From Clostridiales bacterium (GTDB lineage: Bacteria > Bacillota > Clostridia > Oscillospirales > CAG-272), in NCBI GenBank assembly GCA_012522015.1, contig JAAYLD010000066.1, positions 1 through 63,822 of the forward strand: a DNA stretch of 63,822 nt, in the 5' to 3' direction. Shown piece after piece: positions 2,699 to 61,860 of this stretch. The notes beneath the pieces were generated by a model, which made no database searches, was not told where the DNA came from, and was given only the letters and a program-made list of their open reading frames with translations. Position numbers and translations under genes: made by a program. Position 1 is the stretch's first letter. Every line of letters begins with the position of its first letter.

Positions 2699-4462
2699 AT
2701 GAGGTTTATAGGCAGGGGAGCAGTAGTCGCTGCTGCAACGGTTGCCACCGCAGCGGTAGTATTAATGATAGCTCTAACGGGCTGTTCTTCCGGCAATAAA
2801 GTTGAGCAAAACAACTGGGAGAATTACGATGAACTTATAGATTCCATTATGGTATCCGGTGACGCCGCTGAACGCGAAGCTCTTCTTCATGAGGCTGAAG
2901 ACATGCTCATGGAGACAGGATGTGTTGTTCCGGTGCACACTAAAAACAGTGATTTCACATCTGTACCGGGTCTTACAGGAGTTTACGAATCATGCAGCGG
3001 AGCGAAATATTTTGCAGGCGCATCACTTGGCGACTCCTCAAAAATTTCCGTCGGATTAACAGGGGAGGCAAGAGAAATCGACCCTGCGATGGCATATGAC
3101 CCCATTGAGACGACAGTTGCCGTCAACATATCAGCCGGACTTTTTAAGTTTGGAGCCGACGGGCTGCCGACCCCTGATCTTGCTGCCGGTTATGTGGTGT
3201 CGGAGGATGGGCTGAGTTACACCTTCACGCTGCGCGAGGGGCTTTTGTGGTCGAATGGCACCGTAATTGATGCCGAAGATGTTAAATATTCGTGGGAGCG
3301 GGCAGCACAAGAATCAACTGGCTGTAAATATGCTTATCTTTTTGATGTAATTGCACGTGATGACAACGGCAAGATGATGATTACATCAACAGACTCAAGC
3401 TTACGCACGTTTATCGTGCAGCTAAAGCGTCCGTGCCCATATTTTATTGATTTATGCGCCACCCCAGCGTTTGCTCTTGTAAATGAATACTGCGTCAAAA
3501 GAGCGAAGGGTTATTCAGATATTTACGGAAACGTGCTTGATGCGGGCGCGTGGACGAGAGATGCAGACCCTGTCGTTTCAGGGCCGTATAAGTTTTCGTC
3601 TTGGACTTCGGGCAACTCAATTACGCTTGTAAAAAACGAAAAATACTACGATGCCGAAAATGTCCGAATTAGCGAAATAAAGATTTATTTCGGAAACAGG
3701 GAAGAAAATACAGCCGCTTTTGCGGCAGGGGGGCTTTCGCTTGTTGATTTTGTACCGACATTTGATGAAGAAACACAAAGCAGCAGCGGGCACCCTCAGA
3801 TGACAGTTAATGATGGCAAGATTCTTTCATCACATTATCTGTGCTTTAATTTTCACAGCAAAATATTTAGAGGAATGACAGCTGCTCAGGCTGCAAATCT
3901 GCGCCGCGCGCTTTCGCTTCTTATTGACCGCAATCAAGTTATAGAAACGGTTGGAGAAGGTGCTGTTGCATCGACGTCTATCATACCTAAGGATACGCCG
4001 GATGGCGTTGGTGGATTGTATGGTGTAAGCGATGCTCTTTATGCATATGCTGATGAGAAAGCGCCCGGATACTTTTCTAATAACACAGAAGAAAATTTAG
4101 CCGAGGCGAGGCGCATTCTTGCAGAAATTGGACTTGACGCTGATGGCGACGGAATTATAGATAACGCACGCCGCTTTGATATCAAATACCTAACGCTAAA
4201 CACTCCAAGCGAGATAAAATTGGCACAATGCGTTCAGCAAAATCTTGCAAAGGTCGGAATTATAGTAAAGCTTCGTGCTGTGAGGGAAGAAGGTTACCTT
4301 TACGAGCGGATGATATACAGCTATGATATTGTCGCGACGGAGTTTACGGCTGCCTATCCGTCAGCTACCAGCTTTCTTGAGCTTTGGTACACTGGCGGTG
4401 CACATAACTGGGCGCAGCTTGGTGCTGAAGCCGTAAAGGAAGAGAATAAAAACGCATATTAA
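2699..4462 (+). CDS. Family 5 ABC solute-binding lipoprotein (OppA-like), apparently circularly permuted
   Basis: RBS GAGGAGG 8 nt before ATG 2699, lipobox ALTGC, and SBP_bac_5 motifs (EIDPA, YTFTLREGLLWSNG, SGPYKF, LRRALSLLIDR). Confidence 0.9.
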   Translation: MRFIGRGAVVAAATVATAAVVLMIALTGCSSGNKVEQNNWENYDELIDSIMVSGDAAEREALLHEAEDMLMETGCVVPVHTKNSDFTSVPGLTGVYESCSGAKYFAGASLGDSSKISVGLTGEAREIDPAMAYDPIETTVAVNISAGLFKFGADGLPTPDLAAGYVVSEDGLSYTFTLREGLLWSNGTVIDAEDVKYSWERAAQESTGCKYAYLFDVIARDDNGKMMITSTDSSLRTFIVQLKRPCPYFIDLCATPAFALVNEYCVKRAKGYSDIYGNVLDAGAWTRDADPVVSGPYKFSSWTSGNSITLVKNEKYYDAENVRISEIKIYFGNREENTAAFAAGGLSLVDFVPTFDEETQSSSGHPQMTVNDGKILSSHYLCFNFHSKIFRGMTAAQAANLRRALSLLIDRNQVIETVGEGAVASTSIIPKDTPDGVGGLYGVSDALYAYADEKAPGYFSNNTEENLAEARRILAEIGLDADGDGIIDNARRFDIKYLTLNTPSEIKLAQCVQQNLAKVGIIVKLRAVREEGYLYERMIYSYDIVATEFTAAYPSATSFLELWYTGGAHNWAQLGAEAVKEENKNAY

Positions 4463-35254: not shown

Positions 35255-36028
35255 CTATGGGCTGCTGAACGATACGGAGATGTTATCAATTAGGACGGTA
35301 CCGTCTCCATATTCAATAACAGTGTAGAAAAGCGGGCGGGATGCATCGCTCTCTATATCATTTCTGAATGTACCGTTGTTTTTGAAGATTTTATATCCGA
35401 CTTTATAAACATAAGTCGTCTCGTTCGTTTCATTAGAAAAAGACTTAGAGATGTGTTTTATTTCAATGTCATATATTTTTTGAGGTGCAAATATTTCTTT
35501 ATTTTTATGATTTTTGAAATAATTCTCGGTAAAATATGAATCGTATTCTTCGTATTTACCCTCTATGACTGTCTTAAAATATCGTGCGAAAAAAGCGATC
35601 GGCGCGTCATATCTGCTGTAATCATCGTCGGTGATGTAAAACGTGTCCATCCCCTCGGTATATGCAATATACCTATTGAGATTCATGTACTCTTTGTCAT
35701 CATAAACGTTTTCCTCATAATTAGCTTCATAAAACCGAAGGCTTTTTATGCGATCAAGATAGTCTGATGTTACTTTCTTTTCATTAATCTTTTGTTCGAT
35801 ATAATTATAAAGGCTCTGAGCTGCCGGAACTCCAGCGTACCAGATAACAACAATGGCTAACATCGCGGCAAAGGTTAGTAGTATTGCGCGCTTCTGTTTT
35901 TGACGGCTGTTTTTATTGCCACCGGGCAAGGTATGTGCTGCTTCTGTGCCTTTTGTTGTGTGAAGTGTTATGTCATCGGTTGTTTTTACGAGATCGGCAG
36001 GCTTTTTATCGTTGTTAGTTTGTTTCAT
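35255..36028 (-). CDS. Hypothetical single-pass membrane protein with a Tyr/Asp-rich extracellular domain
   Basis: 257 aa ORF with a basic stretch then a TM (AILLTFAAMLAIVVIWYAGV); no family recognised. Confidence 0.75.
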   Translation of the reverse strand: MKQTNNDKKPADLVKTTDDITLHTTKGTEAAHTLPGGNKNSRQKQKRAILLTFAAMLAIVVIWYAGVPAAQSLYNYIEQKINEKKVTSDYLDRIKSLRFYEANYEENVYDDKEYMNLNRYIAYTEGMDTFYITDDDYSRYDAPIAFFARYFKTVIEGKYEEYDSYFTENYFKNHKNKEIFAPQKIYDIEIKHISKSFSNETNETTYVYKVGYKIFKNNGTFRNDIESDASRPLFYTVIEYGDGTVLIDNISVSFSSP

Positions 36029-36380: not shown

Positions 36381-36409
36381 TTGACAATCTATAAATATTA
36401 TAATATAAT
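36381..36409 (+). promoter_or_regulatory. Sigma-A promoter of the acyl ligase-carrier protein operon
   Basis: Perfect TTGACA-17 nt-TATAAT. Confidence 0.8.
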
Positions 36410-36423
36410 TAACAAAATTATTG

Positions 36424-36445
36424 TATATGCCCAATTGGGCACATA
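36424..36445. promoter_or_regulatory. Palindromic operator candidate
   Basis: TAT(A)TGCCCAATTGGGCA(C)ATA with a perfect 14-bp core, just downstream of the predicted +1. Confidence 0.4.
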
Positions 36446-36467
36446 ACATGTGACAGTGGAGCGAGAC

Positions 36468-38174
36468 ATGAAATTTTTAAACACATTACGTGCAGACCCG
36501 CCAAAGCAGATAACTGATCTTCGCCACCTTGTTTACAGTAGTGCGGAAAAATTTAAAGATAAAGCGATTTATTTGTATATTGAAGACGGTGTTCAAAAGG
36601 AGTTTACGTATACCGACTTAGCTCGTGATATGGACTGCCTTGGCACCGCGTTTTATGCTCTTGGGATCGGCGGTGCGAAGATTGCTGTTATCGGTGATAC
36701 CCATCCAAAATGGATAACAACATATTATGCAACTGTCAATGGTGGCGGTGTAATCGTACCTCTCGACCGCGAACTGATAATTGAGAGTATAATTGGCTTT
36801 TGCTGTGAAGCTGAGGTATCGGCGATTGTATATACGGGTTCTTTCAACAAAACGCTTGTCAGCGTGCGCGATAAAATGCCAACGGTGAAATATTTCATAC
36901 CGATTCATCCTGATGGCGAAGAAAAGTTAGATTGCGTTCGTCCTTATGACGAGCTTCTTGAACTTGGTCGCAACGAAATTGCTTCTGGAAACAACGCGTT
37001 TTTATCACATGAAATTGATATGGACGCTATGTGCGCCATCATATTCACATCGGGCACTACGGGCGCAAGCAAGGGCGCCATGCTTTCGCAGCACAACCTG
37101 ACGTCGTGTGTTAATGCGGCGTGTCGTGCGACTAAATTCGACTCTAAGAGCACGTTTGTATCTGTACTCCCGCCGCATCACACATATGAGATGGCCTGTG
37201 GTCACCTTGCGATGGCAAATATCGGCGGCACGGTGTTTATTAATGACAGCTTAAAGCACACGCTTCGAAATTTTCAAAAATTCGCTCCCAACTCGCTCAT
37301 TCTTGTCCCACTGTATCTTGAGACAATGCATAAGAAAATATGGGACGAGATACGCAAGAAAAACTTAACCGCAAAAGTTCGTGCCGCTATGCGCTTTTCA
37401 AATATGCTTTTGCGTATAGGCATAGACCGTCGGCGCGTGCTTTTCAAAAGTATACTTGATGCCTTCGGCGGAAATCTGAAGTGCATAATCAGCGGCGGAG
37501 CGCCTCTCTCACCCCATATAATACGCGATTTTTATTCGTTTGGTATTATGGTGCTCGAAGGATACGGCATCACCGAATGTTCGCCCCTTGTCTCTGTTAA
37601 CAGAGCGGACGGTGTGCGCCTGCGCAGCGTCGGAAAGCCGGTTGAAAACTGTTATGTGAAAATCGCAAAATTAGATGACAGTGATGATACGGGCGAGATT
37701 CTCGTTAAGGGTGATAATGTAATGCTTGGCTATTATAAAAACGAGAAAGCTACGGCAGCCGCATTTACTGAGGATGGATGGTTCCGCACAGGTGATGTTG
37801 GACACATAGATAAAGACGGTTATCTTTATATAACCGGCAGACTTAAAAACGTTATAATACTTTCAAATGGGAAGAATATATATCCTGAAGAGATAGAGGA
37901 ATACTTGAAACCTTATCCGGAGATAAAGGAATGCGTTGTAATAGGCGCTCCGAATGATAAGGGTGAGGTTGTTATAACAGCCGTTGTATATCCGGATCGC
38001 GATCTTTTCTCCGGAAAGACTGATGACGAGATACTCCTTGCTATTAAGGATATAATTAATAACGTCAACAGGCAGCTCCCATCCTTTAAGCACATTGTTA
38101 ATGTGCGTCTTCGTACAGAGGAGTTCGAGAAAAACACCTCACGCAAGATACTTAGATTTAAAATTAAGGGATAA
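36468..38174 (+). CDS. Long-chain fatty acyl-CoA/ACP ligase (ANL adenylating enzyme)
   Basis: IIFTSGTTGASKG, EGYGITECSP, WFRTGDVG, ITGRLKNVIILSNGKNIYPEEIE and terminal KNTSRKILR motifs. Confidence 0.93.
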   Translation: MKFLNTLRADPPKQITDLRHLVYSSAEKFKDKAIYLYIEDGVQKEFTYTDLARDMDCLGTAFYALGIGGAKIAVIGDTHPKWITTYYATVNGGGVIVPLDRELIIESIIGFCCEAEVSAIVYTGSFNKTLVSVRDKMPTVKYFIPIHPDGEEKLDCVRPYDELLELGRNEIASGNNAFLSHEIDMDAMCAIIFTSGTTGASKGAMLSQHNLTSCVNAACRATKFDSKSTFVSVLPPHHTYEMACGHLAMANIGGTVFINDSLKHTLRNFQKFAPNSLILVPLYLETMHKKIWDEIRKKNLTAKVRAAMRFSNMLLRIGIDRRRVLFKSILDAFGGNLKCIISGGAPLSPHIIRDFYSFGIMVLEGYGITECSPLVSVNRADGVRLRSVGKPVENCYVKIAKLDDSDDTGEILVKGDNVMLGYYKNEKATAAAFTEDGWFRTGDVGHIDKDGYLYITGRLKNVIILSNGKNIYPEEIEEYLKPYPEIKECVVIGAPNDKGEVVITAVVYPDRDLFSGKTDDEILLAIKDIINNVNRQLPSFKHIVNVRLRTEEFEKNTSRKILRFKIKG

Positions 38175-38284
38175 GCATTTTGACGTTCGACAATACGATA
38201 TTATAATTTTAGTTCTCTCTTAGGTTTCGTTTCAACCTATAATTATTAAAAAATAAATATTATAAGTAAAAAGGAGACATCAAA

Positions 38285-38518
38285 ATGTTTGATGAGATTA
38301 AAAAAATTCTCGCTGAGGAGCTGCAGGTTAATGAAGATCTGATAACAATGGACGCGGAGCTTGCAAACGACCTCGGTGTTAATTCCATTGAGCTTGCTGA
38401 TCTTGTTATGACATGTGAAGATAAATTTAACATTGAGATAAATGAGGACGATATTGGTAAGTTTATTACTGTTGGTGATATCGTCAATTATATGGAAGCT
38501 CTCAAAGACGAGAAATAA
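38285..38518 (+). CDS. Acyl carrier protein, atypical NSI motif
   Basis: 77 aa acidic four-helix ACP pattern; phosphopantetheine site LGVNSIELADL; RBS AAAGGAG. Confidence 0.9.
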   Translation: MFDEIKKILAEELQVNEDLITMDAELANDLGVNSIELADLVMTCEDKFNIEINEDDIGKFITVGDIVNYMEALKDEK

Positions 38519-38589
38519 TAGGTTTTACTTTGCGCTTTGACTACGCTACATAGCGCTGTATAGAGTGTGATTATAATATAAAATGATAG

Positions 38590-38630
38590 ATACCGAGAAT
38601 AGCTTAATTTTAGCTTCTCGGTATTTTTTT
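38590..38630 (+). terminator. Terminator after the ACP gene
   Basis: ATACCGAGAA...TTCTCGGTAT followed by a T tract. Confidence 0.75.
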
Positions 38631-41297: not shown

Positions 41298-41637
41298 AAC
41301 AGTAAAATCCCCCGTCGGGCTGATAAACAGCCGGTATTTTATGAAATAATTTTATAGTTATTATACCACTGATGAAAAGAAAAGCAATGTTATTGTAGAA
41401 ATGTGCTGCAATAAATACATAAAGCAAAATTATGACGCCTGACGTAAAAAGACAGGGTGCATCCGCTTTAATTATTTTATGTAATTAACTGTTTTTGTGT
41501 TTAAAGATAGGACTTTGTATGATATAATTATACTAAAGATGGCCAGATAGAGCCATGTTGAATTAGTTATGCAAAAGCATAACATAATTCGACAATATAA
41601 TACAATTGTAAAAAATCAAAATGGCGAGGCTTGTCTC

Positions 41638-44100
41638 ATGAGAAAGATTGCATACGAAAAAGGACGCCTTCCACATGGCTTTAATCTTGATGCGCTCCCG
41701 CGCACACCGCTGCCTGAATTCGACCGGATTTGCCGGCGTGCTGCAGCGGAAGGGATAGTACTGTTGCGCAACGAGAATAATACGCTGCCTTTGCGCCGTG
41801 GCGAGACAGTTTCGCTGTTCGGACGCGCTCAACTTGATTATGTCAAATCCGGCACAGGCTCCGGTGGGCTTGTGCATCCGCCGTATGTGATTAATATTGT
41901 CGATGGTTTAATTGAGAACGGCAGTGTAAAGCTTAACGAGGAGCTTTTATCAAAATACCGCGAGTGGATTCGGGAGAACCCGTACGACAACGGTCATGGC
42001 TGGGCAACTGAACCGTGGAGTCAGAAGGAATATGTTCCTGACGAGGAGCTTGTCAGGCGGGCGGCAGCATCATCCGACGCAGCCGTTATCGTAATAGGGC
42101 GTACGGCGGGCGAGGACCGCGATATCACAGGTGACAAGGGTAGCTATAACCTCTCAGATGAAGAGCGTGAGCTACTTCGCCTTGTCACAAGCCATTTTAA
42201 GCGCGTTGTCGTCGCGCTTAACGTGGGCGGTATTATTGATATGAAGTGGGTCGATGAATACAAAATCGGCGCTGTTATTTACCTCTGGCAGGGCGGTCAG
42301 GAAGGTGGACGTGCCGCGGCTGATGTTCTGACGGGCGTTGTATCTCCATGCGGCAAGCTTGCGGACACAATAGCTTACGATATAACGGATTATCCGTCCC
42401 ACAAAAATTTCGGTGGGGATAATTACAACCTTTATGAAGAAGATATTTACGTCGGTTACAGGTATTTTGAGACATTTGCGCCCGATCGCGTGATGTTCCC
42501 ATTCGGCTTTGGTCTGTCTTACACGACGTTTAAGCTGTCATGTGATAAAGTTACTGTTAGGGGCGGCAAGCGCGGCGGCAGAATATATGCAGACATAACG
42601 GTCGTAAACACTGGTAGTATGCCCGGGCGTGAGGTTGTTCAGATATATTTCGAAGCGCCGCAGGGGGTGCTTGGCAAGCCGGCGCGTGTACTTTGCGCTT
42701 TCGGAAAGACGAAAACGATTCTCCCGGGCGGAAGTCAAAAAATACAGCTTTCGTTTCCGATATCATCAATGGCGTCATATGATGACGGAGGTTTTACAGG
42801 CTATAAATCGTCTTACGTTCTTGAAGCGGGCGATTATCACATTTACGCAGGTGCCGATGTCCGCTCGGCGGAGCGTATTTTCACATATAATGTGCCGAAA
42901 ACTATTGTCACACAGCGCCTGACGGAAGCAATGTCACCGTCGCGCGAGTTTTATAGAATAAAGCCGGGTGAAAAAATAACTACTGAGGGAACAGATAAGC
43001 CCATACGTTATAGCCTTGTACGCGAACGTGTGCCGATGCGCTCGTATGATGTTTGTGCGCGCATTGAAAAGGCACGGGAATCGATACTGGAGCATAAATA
43101 TACGGGCGACGTGGGAATTAAACTTCGTGACGTATATTTAGGCAACAGTACAATTGATGAGTTTATTGCGCAGCTTACGAACGAAGAGCTTGCCGCGCTG
43201 TCACGTGGTGAGGGCATAAACAGCAAAAGGCGTAGCGATGTATGGACGACAGCAGTTATAGGTGGTGTCACCGATTCGCTTGTCGAAAAAGGGATACCTG
43301 TATCAACAAATACAGATGGGCCGTCGGGCATTCGCAGCGATTCGGGAGAGCAGGCGACGCTCATGCCGTGCGGCACGCTTATCGGCTGCACATGGGACAC
43401 AGCTCTTGCCGAAGAAATGTTCATCTATGAAGGTCTTGAGCTTCGGGCGCGCGGTCTTGATGCGCTGCTCGGGCCGGGAATGAACATACACCGGCATCCG
43501 TATAACGGGCGCAACTTTGAATATTTCTCGGAGGATCCGCTTCTGACAGGGAAAATGGCTGCGGCGGAGACGCGCGGCGCGGAACGGTGCGGTGTGTCGA
43601 CAACGCTGAAGCATTTTGCCGCCAACAATCAGGAAAAACGCCGCCACGACTGCGATTCTGTTATGAGCGAGCGTGCGGCACGCGAGATATACCTTCGTGG
43701 TTTTGAGATAGCAGTAAGGGAAGGTAACGCCCGCGCCATAATGACGTCATATAACCCCATAAACGGCATATACAGCGCCGGAAACTACGATCTTTTGACG
43801 ACAATTCTGCGTGGCGAATGGGGATTTACCGGTTTTGTTATGACAGACTGGTGGGCAAAGGTTAATTATGTCGGCTGTGTCGGCTCACAAAAAGCGCGAG
43901 GCGCTATGGTGCGGGCACAAAACGATGTTTATATGGTAGTATCAAACGCCGAAGCGGAAAATGACAGTGAAAATGGAGACGACATTCTGTCGTGCCTTTC
44001 GGCGGGGATTATTACACGCGGGGAGCTTGAGAGAAACGCTAAAAACATTCTTAATTATATAATGAAGACACCGACGTTTGAAAAAACTCTCATAAGATGA
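41638..44100 (+). CDS. GH3 beta-glucosidase/xylosidase, inverted domain order
   Basis: Sandwich domain first (AAAEGIVLLRNE, GRTAGED), then Fn3 (PFGFGLSYTTF, GREVVQIY), then the catalytic barrel (DGPSGIR, KHFAANNQE, VMTDWW). Confidence 0.93.
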   Translation: MRKIAYEKGRLPHGFNLDALPRTPLPEFDRICRRAAAEGIVLLRNENNTLPLRRGETVSLFGRAQLDYVKSGTGSGGLVHPPYVINIVDGLIENGSVKLNEELLSKYREWIRENPYDNGHGWATEPWSQKEYVPDEELVRRAAASSDAAVIVIGRTAGEDRDITGDKGSYNLSDEERELLRLVTSHFKRVVVALNVGGIIDMKWVDEYKIGAVIYLWQGGQEGGRAAADVLTGVVSPCGKLADTIAYDITDYPSHKNFGGDNYNLYEEDIYVGYRYFETFAPDRVMFPFGFGLSYTTFKLSCDKVTVRGGKRGGRIYADITVVNTGSMPGREVVQIYFEAPQGVLGKPARVLCAFGKTKTILPGGSQKIQLSFPISSMASYDDGGFTGYKSSYVLEAGDYHIYAGADVRSAERIFTYNVPKTIVTQRLTEAMSPSREFYRIKPGEKITTEGTDKPIRYSLVRERVPMRSYDVCARIEKARESILEHKYTGDVGIKLRDVYLGNSTIDEFIAQLTNEELAALSRGEGINSKRRSDVWTTAVIGGVTDSLVEKGIPVSTNTDGPSGIRSDSGEQATLMPCGTLIGCTWDTALAEEMFIYEGLELRARGLDALLGPGMNIHRHPYNGRNFEYFSEDPLLTGKMAAAETRGAERCGVSTTLKHFAANNQEKRRHDCDSVMSERAAREIYLRGFEIAVREGNARAIMTSYNPINGIYSAGNYDLLTTILRGEWGFTGFVMTDWWAKVNYVGCVGSQKARGAMVRAQNDVYMVVSNAEAENDSENGDDILSCLSAGIITRGELERNAKNILNYIMKTPTFEKTLIR

Positions 44101-58722: not shown

Positions 58723-58756
58723 GAAAAGCTCTGACGCGTACGCGTCAGAGCTTTTC
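58723..58756. terminator. Perfect 34-bp spacer-less palindrome overlapping the plsC-like stop
   Basis: GAAAAGCTCTGACGCGT-ACGCGTCAGAGCTTTTC. Confidence 0.7.
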
Positions 58757-60001
58757 TTTGCTTTCATCTGTCACGCGGTCAAGGAAGGCGACCCATTTTA
58801 TTGCCGCGCGGCCGTCGGGGATGGGATAAATATAATAAAGCCTGCCATTATAGTAAAAATCAAATTCCTCACCGAGCGTTATCGGAAATGCTATTATTTT
58901 TTCTGTCGGTATGGATAGCGTAATATTCTCCCCGAAGACACAGCCGTCAAAATAAAGAGCATGTCTGTCAAGCTTCACTTCTGCAACACCTGCGTTTTTG
59001 TCCATATTGCCCTCACTGTTAACGCAGCCAACGCGAGCATGGCACTCAAGCGGAGAGTTAAGATTAATTTTATCGCACTGCCACTCGTACCAGTCTGATA
59101 TTGTATCAAACGGGGCGCCGGATAAGCGGTAGTACTCGTCAAGCGTTGCATCAAGCCCGCAGGGGCAGCGTATGTGACCCTCCGATGTGTCAAGCGTAAA
59201 TTCACTCTCACACAAAGGACATTTATAAAGGATTCTGTCGAGTCCAAGCGTTGTGTCGCGGCATCGATAGCGGACACCAGCCATTGCTACCTCATCGTCG
59301 TGACGGATAGCGTCCGCTATTTTCTTGTGAAGCTCATCCGCTGTCATCGAGCGGACTTCCTCACCTGTCATTAGCTTTTCTGTGCGGATGTGAATTCTTC
59401 CGCGGCGCTTTGATTTCGCCCACTTCGGGAATGTCAGCCCGGCGCCATTGCTTGTGACGATGTAAATATCAAGCCCAAGCCTCCGCGCAAGCTCGGCGGT
59501 GCCGTTGGTGATTCGCAGAGAACGTGCGTACCACGTAAGCCGCCCCTCTGGAAAGAGCACGATTATTCGCCCCGATCTTGCTGCACGTATTATATTAATG
59601 ACTGTCTGCGCGTCAGGGTAAAACATTTTTTTCGTTATTACGTTCAGTTTGCGAAGAACCGGACGGAGCTTCGGTGATGTGAAAAAATGCTCACTGATAA
59701 CATATGTGACGCGATGAGGTAAAAGAGCCATACCGGTTAAGAGAGGGTCATAATTGCTTACGTGCGGCGCTAAAACGAGGGCAGGGCTGCGCATACCGCG
59801 AATTGCACGTTTATCAATAGTAATTCTGTATTTCAGCCGAAGGTATGGCACTACAAATACAGCCGCGATGATGTATAAAAACAGCGACGGCGGTTTTATT
59901 TGATTTTTAGCTTTGTTTTTTCCCTTAGATTTTGCTTTTTTATCGCTTTTTCGGGCAATTTGAGTGGAGGAAACATCAGATTTTTTGCTGTTATCTTTCA
60001 T
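58745..60001 (-). CDS. Lysophospholipid acyltransferase (PlsC-like) with Cys-containing C-terminal domain
   Basis: HVSNYD (HxxxxD) and VLFPEG motifs; C-terminal CPLC...CPC. Confidence 0.88.
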   Translation of the reverse strand: MKDNSKKSDVSSTQIARKSDKKAKSKGKNKAKNQIKPPSLFLYIIAAVFVVPYLRLKYRITIDKRAIRGMRSPALVLAPHVSNYDPLLTGMALLPHRVTYVISEHFFTSPKLRPVLRKLNVITKKMFYPDAQTVINIIRAARSGRIIVLFPEGRLTWYARSLRITNGTAELARRLGLDIYIVTSNGAGLTFPKWAKSKRRGRIHIRTEKLMTGEEVRSMTADELHKKIADAIRHDDEVAMAGVRYRCRDTTLGLDRILYKCPLCESEFTLDTSEGHIRCPCGLDATLDEYYRLSGAPFDTISDWYEWQCDKINLNSPLECHARVGCVNSEGNMDKNAGVAEVKLDRHALYFDGCVFGENITLSIPTEKIIAFPITLGEEFDFYYNGRLYYIYPIPDGRAAIKWVAFLDRVTDESKEKL

Positions 60002-60105
60002 GTTGCGCACAACTCCCCCGCTATAGTCATAGCGGCGCCCCAAAAGGCACCGCATATTCTGTCTATCTCAACTAATATTTATTACTTACTTTTAAAGCAC
60101 CAGAA

Positions 60106-61860
60106 TTATATGTTTGCGTCGTCAGTATCGTCGCTTCCTAATCCTACACGGCTTATTTTGCGGGATGTTGTCTTTTCAAACTCAGTCTTACGCAGTTTGA
60201 TTTTTGCTATACGTTTGTAGGAGGGCAGCTCGCGGTTGATTTTTGCAACTTCCTTGATCATTAACTCAAGGCGTTCCCTTGCGCTCATACCTTTTGTTAA
60301 TTGCTCATCAAGGAACATTTCGGCGTAAAGACCCGTTTCGTCACCATCCTCGTTTTTAAGCGCGTAAACGACAACTTCGCGAATATATGGTATGAATTAA
60401 GGTAACCTTCGATTTCTTCGGGATAAACATTTTTACCGTTTTTGAGGACGATGAGGTTTTTCTTGCGTCCGGTTATAGTAAGGCGGCCGTCTTCACCAAT
60501 ACGGCCATAGTCACCGGTGTAAAAAGCGCCGTCGCGGAGAACTTCTGCCGTTGCTTCGGGATTTTTATAATATCCCATCATAACGACATCGCCCGAAACC
60601 GTTATCTCGCCCTCGCCGTTTTCGTTCGGGTTATCAATTCCGATTTTAACGCACGGAAGTGGAACGCCGACTGTATGGTAGTCATTACAAAAGTCGCGGT
60701 TTGCAGAGACAAGCGGCGAGCATTCGTTATACCATAGCCGTTGATGAGCGTTATGCCGATTGCATCGAAAATTCCGCAAGCTCCGGACGAATCGGCGCGC
60801 CGCCGCAAACGATTTTAATAAGCCTGCCGCCGAAGACCTTGTGGACACTCTCGAAAAGTTCGCGCCGGCGGTCAATGCCTATTTTTCTTAACCTTGCGCT
60901 TATCTTTATGAGTTTACGCAGGCCGTCAGCCTTACCGGCGGCCTCTGCGCTGCTCCAAATCTTTTTATAAAAGTTATCGACGTATGCCGGAACGAGCATT
61001 ATATAGTCAGGCTTATAAAGTTTTAAATTTTCGGCAATGGAGCGAAGATTTTCGTTAATACAGAGTGTTGCGTGCTTTTGAATCGACACAAGAATGTCGC
61101 ATACGGCTTCGTATGTGTGGTTATAGGGTAAAACAGAAAGCCCGGTTGTGTAGACTGTAGAAATCTGCATTCCATAATAAACGGAGGATACAAGGTTGTG
61201 CTCCGATAACATTACGCCCTTTGCAACGCCCGTTGTGCCGGATGTATATACGAGCATTTTAAGCTCGTATTCACCGCGGCGGGCGTCAAGATATGAGCGG
61301 TCGCAACAGTCAGCGCCGAGCCGCCATAACGGATAAGATCCTCTGCCCGGACGGCTTTGTCGTTTTGCAGATTTCTATGTTCATTTTCGGGAAGCCCGAA
61401 TACGATAAACTTACGTATAGCGGGTATTTCATCGGCATACGGGAGAAGCTTGCCCGCAAAATTCTTTGTTAAAAACAGCGCTTCACAGTCACTGTGATGA
61501 ACAATGTTTATTATTTCGCGAACAGGAAGCTCACGGTCGATCGGGACAAAAACGTTATCGCTGCACAGTGTCGTCAGATATGCAAGATCCAGCCGTAGCA
61601 GTTTTCACCTATCATATGATGTGTATATTCCTAAGGCCAAGAAGCGCCATTCCTGTTCCAAGCGCGTCAACAGCGTCGCGGAAGCGTGAATATGTGACCT
61701 CAGTAACAGTGCCTTCTTCGCCTTTGAATTTATAAGCCACGGTGTCCGGTGCTTCTTCTGCGGCAAGGTCGAGCATTTCGCGTATTGAGGAAAAAGGCTT
61801 TACTTCGTAAAGCGGGTAATTATGTTTCAAATTCGTTCCCCTGGGATACATTGTTTCCAT
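60106..61860 (-). pseudogene. Long-chain acyl-CoA/ACP ligase split by six single-base deletions (pseudogene or consensus error)
   Basis: Pieces in different frames carry YTSGTTG, NGYGITECSP, FYTGDYG, ITGRKKNLIVLKNGKNVYPEEIE and KTTSRKISR. Adding 1 nt at about 61615, 61586, 61304, 60770, 60725 and 60393 restores a 586 aa ORF. Confidence 0.85.

Follow-up and report, generated by a model that had tools for sequence, protein, structure and literature searches.

A candidate acyl-ACP synthetase and its Asn-Ser acyl carrier protein in uncultured gut Clostridia

How might Bacillota in which FakA and FakB are not found bring exogenous fatty acids into their membrane lipids? This question is raised by a two-gene locus in a 63,822-nt stretch of Clostridiales DNA (contig JAAYLD010000066.1 of assembly GCA_012522015.1; the whole stretch is called the window below), in which the gene for a ligase of the ANL superfamily is followed by that for a small acyl carrier protein (ACP) with Asn-Ser at its attachment site. 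The use of exogenous fatty acids by Bacillota is currently attributed to FakA/FakB, and acyl-ACP synthetases have been described in Proteobacteria, Chlamydia, cyanobacteria and Bacteroidota. The original prediction for this locus was a fatty-acid scavenging pair independent of FakA/FakB, possibly in a lineage with reduced type II fatty-acid synthesis (FASII). Comparative genomics suggests that the pair is probably an acyl-ACP synthetase with its preferred acceptor ACP, which would load environmental fatty acids for use in membrane lipids.

In the proposed mechanism, the ligase would adenylate a free fatty acid, probably a long-chain one, and would then pass the acyl group on to the thiol of the phosphopantetheine arm carried by the Asn-Ser ACP. 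The holo form of this ACP would be made by the only phosphopantetheinyl transferase of the genome, a 242-aa protein of the Sfp type encoded on contig C81. The acyl-ACP would enter phospholipid synthesis, where PlsX would convert it to acyl-phosphate for PlsY and PlsC would use it directly. The module would take over, in this lineage, the job that FakA/FakB perform in other Bacillota. ATP-dependent acyl-ACP chemistry has been shown experimentally for AasS-type enzymes (PMC12086093), and PlsX requires acyl-ACP to make the acyl-phosphate used by PlsY (PMC6509188).

The Asn-Ser carrier protein and its ligase

The attachment region of the ACP reads NDLGVNSIELADLV, with Asn33 and Ser34 in the motif DLGVNSIELAD. 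In ACPs of fatty-acid synthesis, the position preceding the attachment serine is a near-invariant Asp that contacts AcpS-type transferases. The LGVNSIEL site of the original prediction was confirmed, and Asn-Ser occupied it in 120 of the 120 nearest database homologues (60–100% identity). The protein belongs to PF00550 and matches the NCBIfam ACP subfamily NF002148, and its AlphaFold2 model is a four-helix ACP (pLDDT 89) in which Ser34 starts and caps helix II. Its nearest solved relatives are fatty-acid ACPs, whose Asp aligns with Asn33. It is not a housekeeping AcpP: the site reads Asn-Ser-Ile as opposed to Asp-Ser-Leu, the score against TIGR00517 (63.5 bits) falls short of the cut-off of 70.45, and the gene does not lie among fab genes. 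The Asn in place of Asp may reflect dependence on an Sfp-type rather than an AcpS-type transferase, or recognition by the ligase.

Loss of a near-invariant, AcpS-contacting residue would also be expected of a relic, that is, of a non-functional ACP or one that is no longer phosphopantetheinylated. We consider this explanation very improbable, as the protein is clearly under constraint: 702 clusters matched in a homologue search (E ≤ 1e-5), and ten positions, Asn33 and Ser34 among them, were invariant in 22 ACP orthologues (mean column identity 60%), with Cys44 conserved in at least 90%. The confident fold prediction, an Sfp-type transferase encoded directly after the ACP in some genomes, and its standing (see below) as the sole carrier protein of two high-quality genomes likewise argue against a relic.

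A scan of 185,579 species-level genomes found the ACP in 281. The best 80 of these 281 loci all came from assemblies of uncultured Clostridia, 'Eubacteriales' or Oscillospiraceae, for which the gut of ruminants or other animals was the usual source, and the nearest relative among them was in Clostridiales bacterium DTU064 (94% identity). At locus L066 (6467-6967), as at L069, L075, L078, L098 and L106, the Asn-Ser ACP is directly followed by an open reading frame (ORF) of 166–167 aa; the L066 ORF matches the Sfp-type phosphopantetheinyl transferase family and is 28% identical to the 242-aa protein of the focal genome.

The ligase combines the AMP-binding N-terminal domain (PF00501, E = 4.9e-57) and the small C-terminal domain (PF13193, E = 3.4e-10) of the ANL superfamily. 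FTSGTTG, GYGITE and other ANL core motifs were invariant among 22 ligase orthologues, and the AlphaFold2 model (pLDDT 88) has the generic ANL fold. Of 102 NCBIfam matches, the best 25, FadD models included, all stayed under their own cut-offs; the best was the long-chain-fatty-acid--CoA ligase model NF004837 (267 bits, cut-off 476). The E. coli-type Aas model NF005291 reached 143 bits against a cut-off of 1349 and matched in its ligase part only, and Pfam found no PlsC-like acyltransferase domain in the 568 residues. A DltA/DltC identity was also considered and rejected, since no DltA model was among the best 25 of the 102 matches and neither DltB nor DltD is encoded next to the pair. The ligase is outside every curated Aas, FadD and DltA family scored. 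It is an enzyme of the long-chain fatty-acid type, and we propose that it acts as an acyl-ACP synthetase.

Fatty acyl-AMP ligases (FAALs) load carrier proteins only, and are recognized by an insertion that blocks the thioester-forming conformation. The N-terminal domain of the ligase aligns 399 residues over 381 Pfam profile positions, and hence has no large insertion. The best superpositions of its model were with structures in the thioester state, among them 5bsr and 4g37 (template modelling scores 0.76–0.77), a result that describes a predicted conformation and is not a functional test. Sequence and fold searches of the PDB returned generic ANL relatives of at most 25% identity, which are uninformative on loading of ACP versus coenzyme A (CoA).

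Linkage to the ACP separates this ligase from its paralogues. In a sample of 201 genomes of the order to which the focal genome belongs, a ligase of the same type (E ≤ 1e-40) was found in 49, and the Asn-Ser ACP directly followed the ligase in 23 of the best 30 ligase loci. The original prediction had called for a check of neighbourhood conservation, and the adjacency is indeed kept in at least four families of the order. In a tree of 73 ligases, all 54 of the ACP-adjacent enzymes fell in one clade of 60 (Shimodaira-Hasegawa-like support 95). These 54 include one enzyme with a Ser-Ser ACP variant downstream (locus L019) and one with an Asp-Ser ACP directly upstream (L018). Ligase paralogues with no ACP beside them, among them the focal genome's own on contig C88 (40% identity), lie outside the clade, and the unlinked orthologues form a single subclade within it.

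These data also bear on the alternative of an ordinary long-chain acyl-CoA synthetase whose position beside an ACP is mechanistically meaningless. CoA ligases make up the top-scoring curated families and all of the solved relatives, the focal genome encodes about eight ANL ligases, and the ACP is frequently alone elsewhere and possibly has a promoter of its own. Chance adjacency would, however, have to account for an arrangement held in one ligase clade over several families and in no sampled paralogue, and for the independent pairing variants at L019 and L018. Moreover, acyl-CoA is no substitute for acyl-ACP in genomes that have PlsX/PlsY and neither FASII nor Fak (PMC6509188). We therefore regard a plain CoA ligase as improbable.

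Fatty-acid genes in the focal genome and across the order

The focal genome is a metagenome-assembled genome of 1.82 Mb in 110 contigs, estimated to be 94.5% complete. It contains four phosphopantetheine-binding matches. Contig C22 carries the cluster fabH-ACP-fabK-fabD-fabG-fabF-fabZ-accD-accA, whose ACP reads IGIDSLDV, with the canonical Asp-Ser; contig C78 (L001:1483-1710, minus strand) has a stand-alone canonical ACP, LGADSLDV, beside a ROK-family regulator; contig C72 has a weak carrier-like ORF downstream of another ligase; and the fourth is the Asn-Ser ACP studied here, on contig C96. FASII is thus complete in this genome and has an Asp-Ser ACP to itself; given the further, stand-alone ACP on C78, the Asn-Ser protein is auxiliary. 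We considered and rejected the possibility that it is the sole housekeeping ACP, part of what the original prediction had named as incompatible with its proposal. The C72 pair (L011:1471-2991 and 3047-3274) consists of an ANL ligase of 506 aa and a carrier-like ORF of 75 aa (PF00550, E = 2.5e-4), and adjoins a gene for a transglutaminase-like surface protein.

Neither DegV/FakB nor FakA (TIGR03599) was found in this 94.5% complete genome. PlsX, PlsY and three PlsC-family genes are present, with plsX on contig C67. The suggestion of a reduced FASII was therefore wrong for the focal genome, where fatty-acid synthesis is retained and the module would be a salvage route; it holds for most of the relatives, since FabF was found in 2 of the 11 genomes of the focal family and in 100 of the 201 genomes of the order. 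Independence from FakA/FakB is supported by the missing Fak proteins, the presence of PlsX, PlsY and PlsC, the auxiliary nature of the ACP and the conservation of the pair, with the reservation that the pair is not obligatory (see below). Large parts of the order apparently lack FASII, and nearly all of these genomes keep at least one ACP.

The phyletic counts come from related genomes of about five families (f1, f6, f8, f11 and f17) and are to be read as patterns, not statistics. When the 201 genomes were scanned with a degenerate DNA pattern of the Asn-Ser site, 28 had exactly one match each and controls had none; a variant in genome G007 (NSLQLAD) raises the number of Asn-Ser-ACP genomes to 29. 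DegV was missing from 28 of the 201 genomes, comprising 18 of the 29 with an Asn-Ser ACP versus 10 of the 172 others. In all 18 DegV-lacking genomes with an Asn-Ser ACP, the ligase is directly upstream of it. A ligase of the same type was detected in 26 of the 28 DegV-lacking genomes, the remaining two being assemblies of 62% and 73% completeness. In G049 and G114, which have an Asn-Ser ACP, the best ligase match is only at the level of a paralogue (39–40% identity), and DegV is kept. The distributions of Fak and of the ligase-ACP pair in the order are largely complementary. Eleven of the 29 genomes lack both FabF and DegV, and all 11 have the adjacent pair.

Two genomes are particularly informative. 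In G147, a member of the focal family that is 98% complete and has PlsX and PlsY, the only significant phosphopantetheine-binding ORF is the Asn-Ser ACP beside the ligase; in G195, the Asn-Ser ACP is likewise the only carrier protein. Where PlsX and PlsY are present and FASII and Fak are absent, a different source of acyl-ACP is needed, and the adjacent ligase is the simplest. In many relatives without FASII and Fak, the module would be the sole route to acyl-ACP. We extend this to a broader proposal, which we judge about equally likely to prove right or wrong: that a group of uncultured gut and rumen Clostridia has swapped Fak for an ANL ligase that loads an undescribed class of ACP with Asn or Ser in place of Asp, and that this is the sole entry for acyl chains where FASII has been lost.

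The same genomes bear on a further alternative, in which the pair feeds a specialised acylation, such as that of a glycolipid or of lipoteichoic acid or another wall polymer, or supplies a regulatory acyl-ACP ligand like AcpB, while the canonical ACP serves PlsX and PlsC. A canonical stand-alone ACP does accompany the Asn-Ser ACP in most relatives, and in some genomes a TagA/WecG glycosyltransferase or an Sfp-type transferase is encoded directly after the Asn-Ser ACP. Dedicated ACPs also typically serve dedicated pathways, as AcpR does in sphingolipid synthesis (PMC9386255), and AcpB is mainly a carrier of a regulatory ligand (PMC6509188). However, no consumer (acyltransferase, ketosynthase, condensation domain or aminotransferase) is conserved beside the pair, and the recurrent neighbours are those of lineage synteny: across the 54 paired loci we found no conserved third gene beyond a NERD protein and a membrane-anchored unknown protein of this kind. 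As the sole carrier in G147 and G195, the Asn-Ser ACP must serve PlsX and PlsC there. For a regulatory role, no FabT-type regulator lies beside the focal FASII cluster, where the upstream gene encodes an extracytoplasmic function (ECF) sigma factor. We consider a specialised sink unlikely.

Several observations weigh against an acyl-ACP synthetase with a dedicated acceptor. The best curated models for the ligase are CoA ligases, all of them scored under cut-off, and its sequence is without any feature that discriminates ACP-loading from CoA-loading enzymes. The change from Asp to Asn in the ACP might impair its phosphopantetheinylation. Most other relatives without FASII retain a canonical stand-alone ACP, an orthologue of the C78 protein (46–54% identity), which offers the ligase an alternative substrate. 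The phyletic associations rest on few lineages, not on independent genomes, and gene absences were called from metagenome-assembled genomes. A search among longer proteins found no natural fusion of ligase and ACP, which is a weak type of evidence; what matched were ACPs carrying extensions of unrelated sequence, and GTPase-ACP fusions of Helicobacter.

Linkage is also incomplete. In the best 80 of the 281 ACP loci, the ligase is upstream in 28 (gap 12–127 nt) and elsewhere in the locus in 3, the contig is too short to tell in 5, and no ligase lies within 6 kb in 44. The neighbours of such lone ACPs are unrelated housekeeping genes (xerC-like, comEC, GHMP kinase, cytidylate-kinase-like) or encode the TagA/WecG glycosyltransferase or a 167-aa Sfp-type transferase. 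The unlinked genomes have a ligase of 42–47% identity elsewhere. The idea of the pair as an obligatory unit must therefore be given up: with adjacency confined to one ligase clade and many ACP loci free of a ligase, the link is specific to one orthologous group and not obligatory. An acyl-ACP synthetase with its preferred acceptor remains our reading of the pair.

Architecture of the locus

The ligase, the ACP and the terminator of the original prediction were found where it had placed them (Table 1), and it was also right that no fab genes are among the neighbours of the pair. Its single promoter stood in part. The perfect consensus site before the ligase is clear, and a second promoter-like site lies before the ACP in the ligase-ACP spacer. 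This spacer is 110 nt long in the focal genome, and no terminator-like site was seen in it. Because of the second site the ACP is possibly also transcribed separately, and a single promoter is not certain. The free energy of the terminator hairpin was equalled by none of 200 shuffled sequences.

Table 1. Features of the ligase-ACP locus and neighbouring genes of interest, in window coordinates.
Feature	Position	Strand	Details
Sigma-70-type promoter, TTGACA-17-TATAAT	36381-36409	+	12/12 consensus matches
Candidate operator, near-perfect palindrome ATGCCCAATTGGGCAC	36427-36442	none	between the -10 box and the ligase ribosome-binding site
ANL ligase ORF (proposed acyl-ACP synthetase)	36468-38174 (ATG) or from 36450 (GTG)	+	568 aa from ATG; GGAG before the ATG
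Promoter-like site, TTGACG-16-TATAAT, in ligase-ACP spacer	38180-38207	+	11/12 consensus matches; function putative
Auxiliary Asn-Ser ACP	38285-38518	+	77 aa; AGGAGA before; PF00550 E = 3.1e-12
Intrinsic terminator, bulged hairpin then U-run	38588-38630	+	dG -17.9 kcal/mol, z -4.2
Protein without Pfam or NCBIfam match	35255-36028	-	257 aa, divergent; one transmembrane helix
Family-3 glycoside hydrolase, permuted domain order	41569-44100	+	843 aa
PlsC-like acyltransferase	58745-60055	-	436 aa; after the second ligase
Second ligase of the same type	60148-61800	-	40–53% identity in pieces

The palindrome downstream of the first promoter is a candidate operator for a regulator. As RNA it folded no better than shuffled sequences (z -1.1). 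Its 12-nt core, GCCCAATTGGGC, has no second copy in the 1.82-Mb genome with one mismatch allowed; we rejected an operator of a shared regulon for this reason.

Upstream of the locus are the division and cell-wall genes ftsW, murG, ftsQ-like and ftsZ and a gene for an unannotated membrane-anchored protein; downstream are an XRE regulator, an Xaa-Pro aminopeptidase and a family-3 glycosidase. Homologues of the divergently encoded 257-aa protein adjoin the ligase in 17 of the 54 paired loci, perhaps by mere synteny. In the glycosidase, the C-terminal domain (residues 63-297) comes first, followed by an Fn3-like domain (355-430) and the N-terminal domain (571-829). The second ligase of the window matches its relatives across at least four reading-frame changes, and is pseudogene-like or poorly assembled. 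It lies upstream of the PlsC-like gene, in an order that resembles a split E. coli Aas.

Significance and comparison with known systems

The literature that we searched holds no description of an acyl-ACP synthetase in Clostridia or of an Asn-Ser ACP. If the proposal is correct, Bacillota would gain their first described acyl-ACP synthetase route, and Gram-positive bacteria a third solution for using exogenous fatty acids. The pair would give a simple account of fatty-acid auxotrophy in these uncultured lineages, and would set apart a subfamily of ACPs able to do without the conserved Asp. The lineages concerned comprise about 280 species-level genomes, predominantly of ruminant-gut origin, whose membranes may be wholly reliant on fatty acids from the diet or host; this would bear on cultivation, on lipid supplementation in the rumen and on insensitivity to FASII inhibitors.

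The FakA/FakB and PlsX system of Bacillota (PMC6509188, PMC12594616) resembles the proposed module in bringing exogenous fatty acids to PlsX, PlsY and PlsC. The chemistry of the two is unrelated: Fak proceeds through acyl-phosphate, whereas the ligase would form an acyl-adenylate and then a thioester. Enterococcus faecalis AcpB (PMC6509188) is also a second, divergent and non-essential ACP of a member of the Bacillota that serves exogenous rather than de novo chains. However, the AcpB gene is immediately downstream of plsX, PlsX loads the protein with acyl chains from the acyl-phosphate that Fak makes, and AcpB acts via FabT (PMC6509188). The Asn-Ser ACP is not of the AcpB type: its gene and plsX are on different contigs, a search of the focal genome found no Fak, and the partner gene encodes a ligase. 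In the DltA/DltC system of Gram-positive bacteria, too, an ANL ligase has a carrier protein of about 80 aa as its partner, but the ACP studied here is closest to fatty-acid ACPs and has no DltB or DltD gene adjacent.

The soluble Aas enzymes (Vibrio harveyi AasS, Neisseria AasN, Chlamydia AasC, Alistipes Aas and cyanobacterial Aas; PMC12086093, PMC9386255) share with the proposed activity the ATP-dependent loading of ACP and the bypass of FASII. In contrast to the pair described here, they load the housekeeping AcpP and have no dedicated ACP gene beside them. Reports of them come from lineages of Gram-negative bacteria, cyanobacteria or Bacteroidota, and the likeness drawn here is one of proposed chemistry and role.

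The closest precedent in gene organization is AasR/AcpR of Proteobacteria (PMC9386255), where the genome encodes, besides the housekeeping AcpP, a small specialised ACP together with a ligase. AasR of Caulobacter crescentus was annotated as an 'acyl-CoA synthetase', yet acylates only the adjacent AcpR and not CoA (PMC9386255). AasR/AcpR sits with serine palmitoyltransferase and feeds sphingolipids (PMC9386255), whereas the proposed sink here is PlsX/PlsY/PlsC, and the present pair is in Bacillota and has an Asn-Ser ACP. It was not assigned to the AasR/AcpR type: the window neighbours examined had no aminotransferase-type Pfam match, and no genome-wide search for serine palmitoyltransferase was made. 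The module would work in the manner of AasR/AcpR and of AasS-type scavenging, and differs from them in phylum, in ACP motif and in the proposed sink for its acyl chains.

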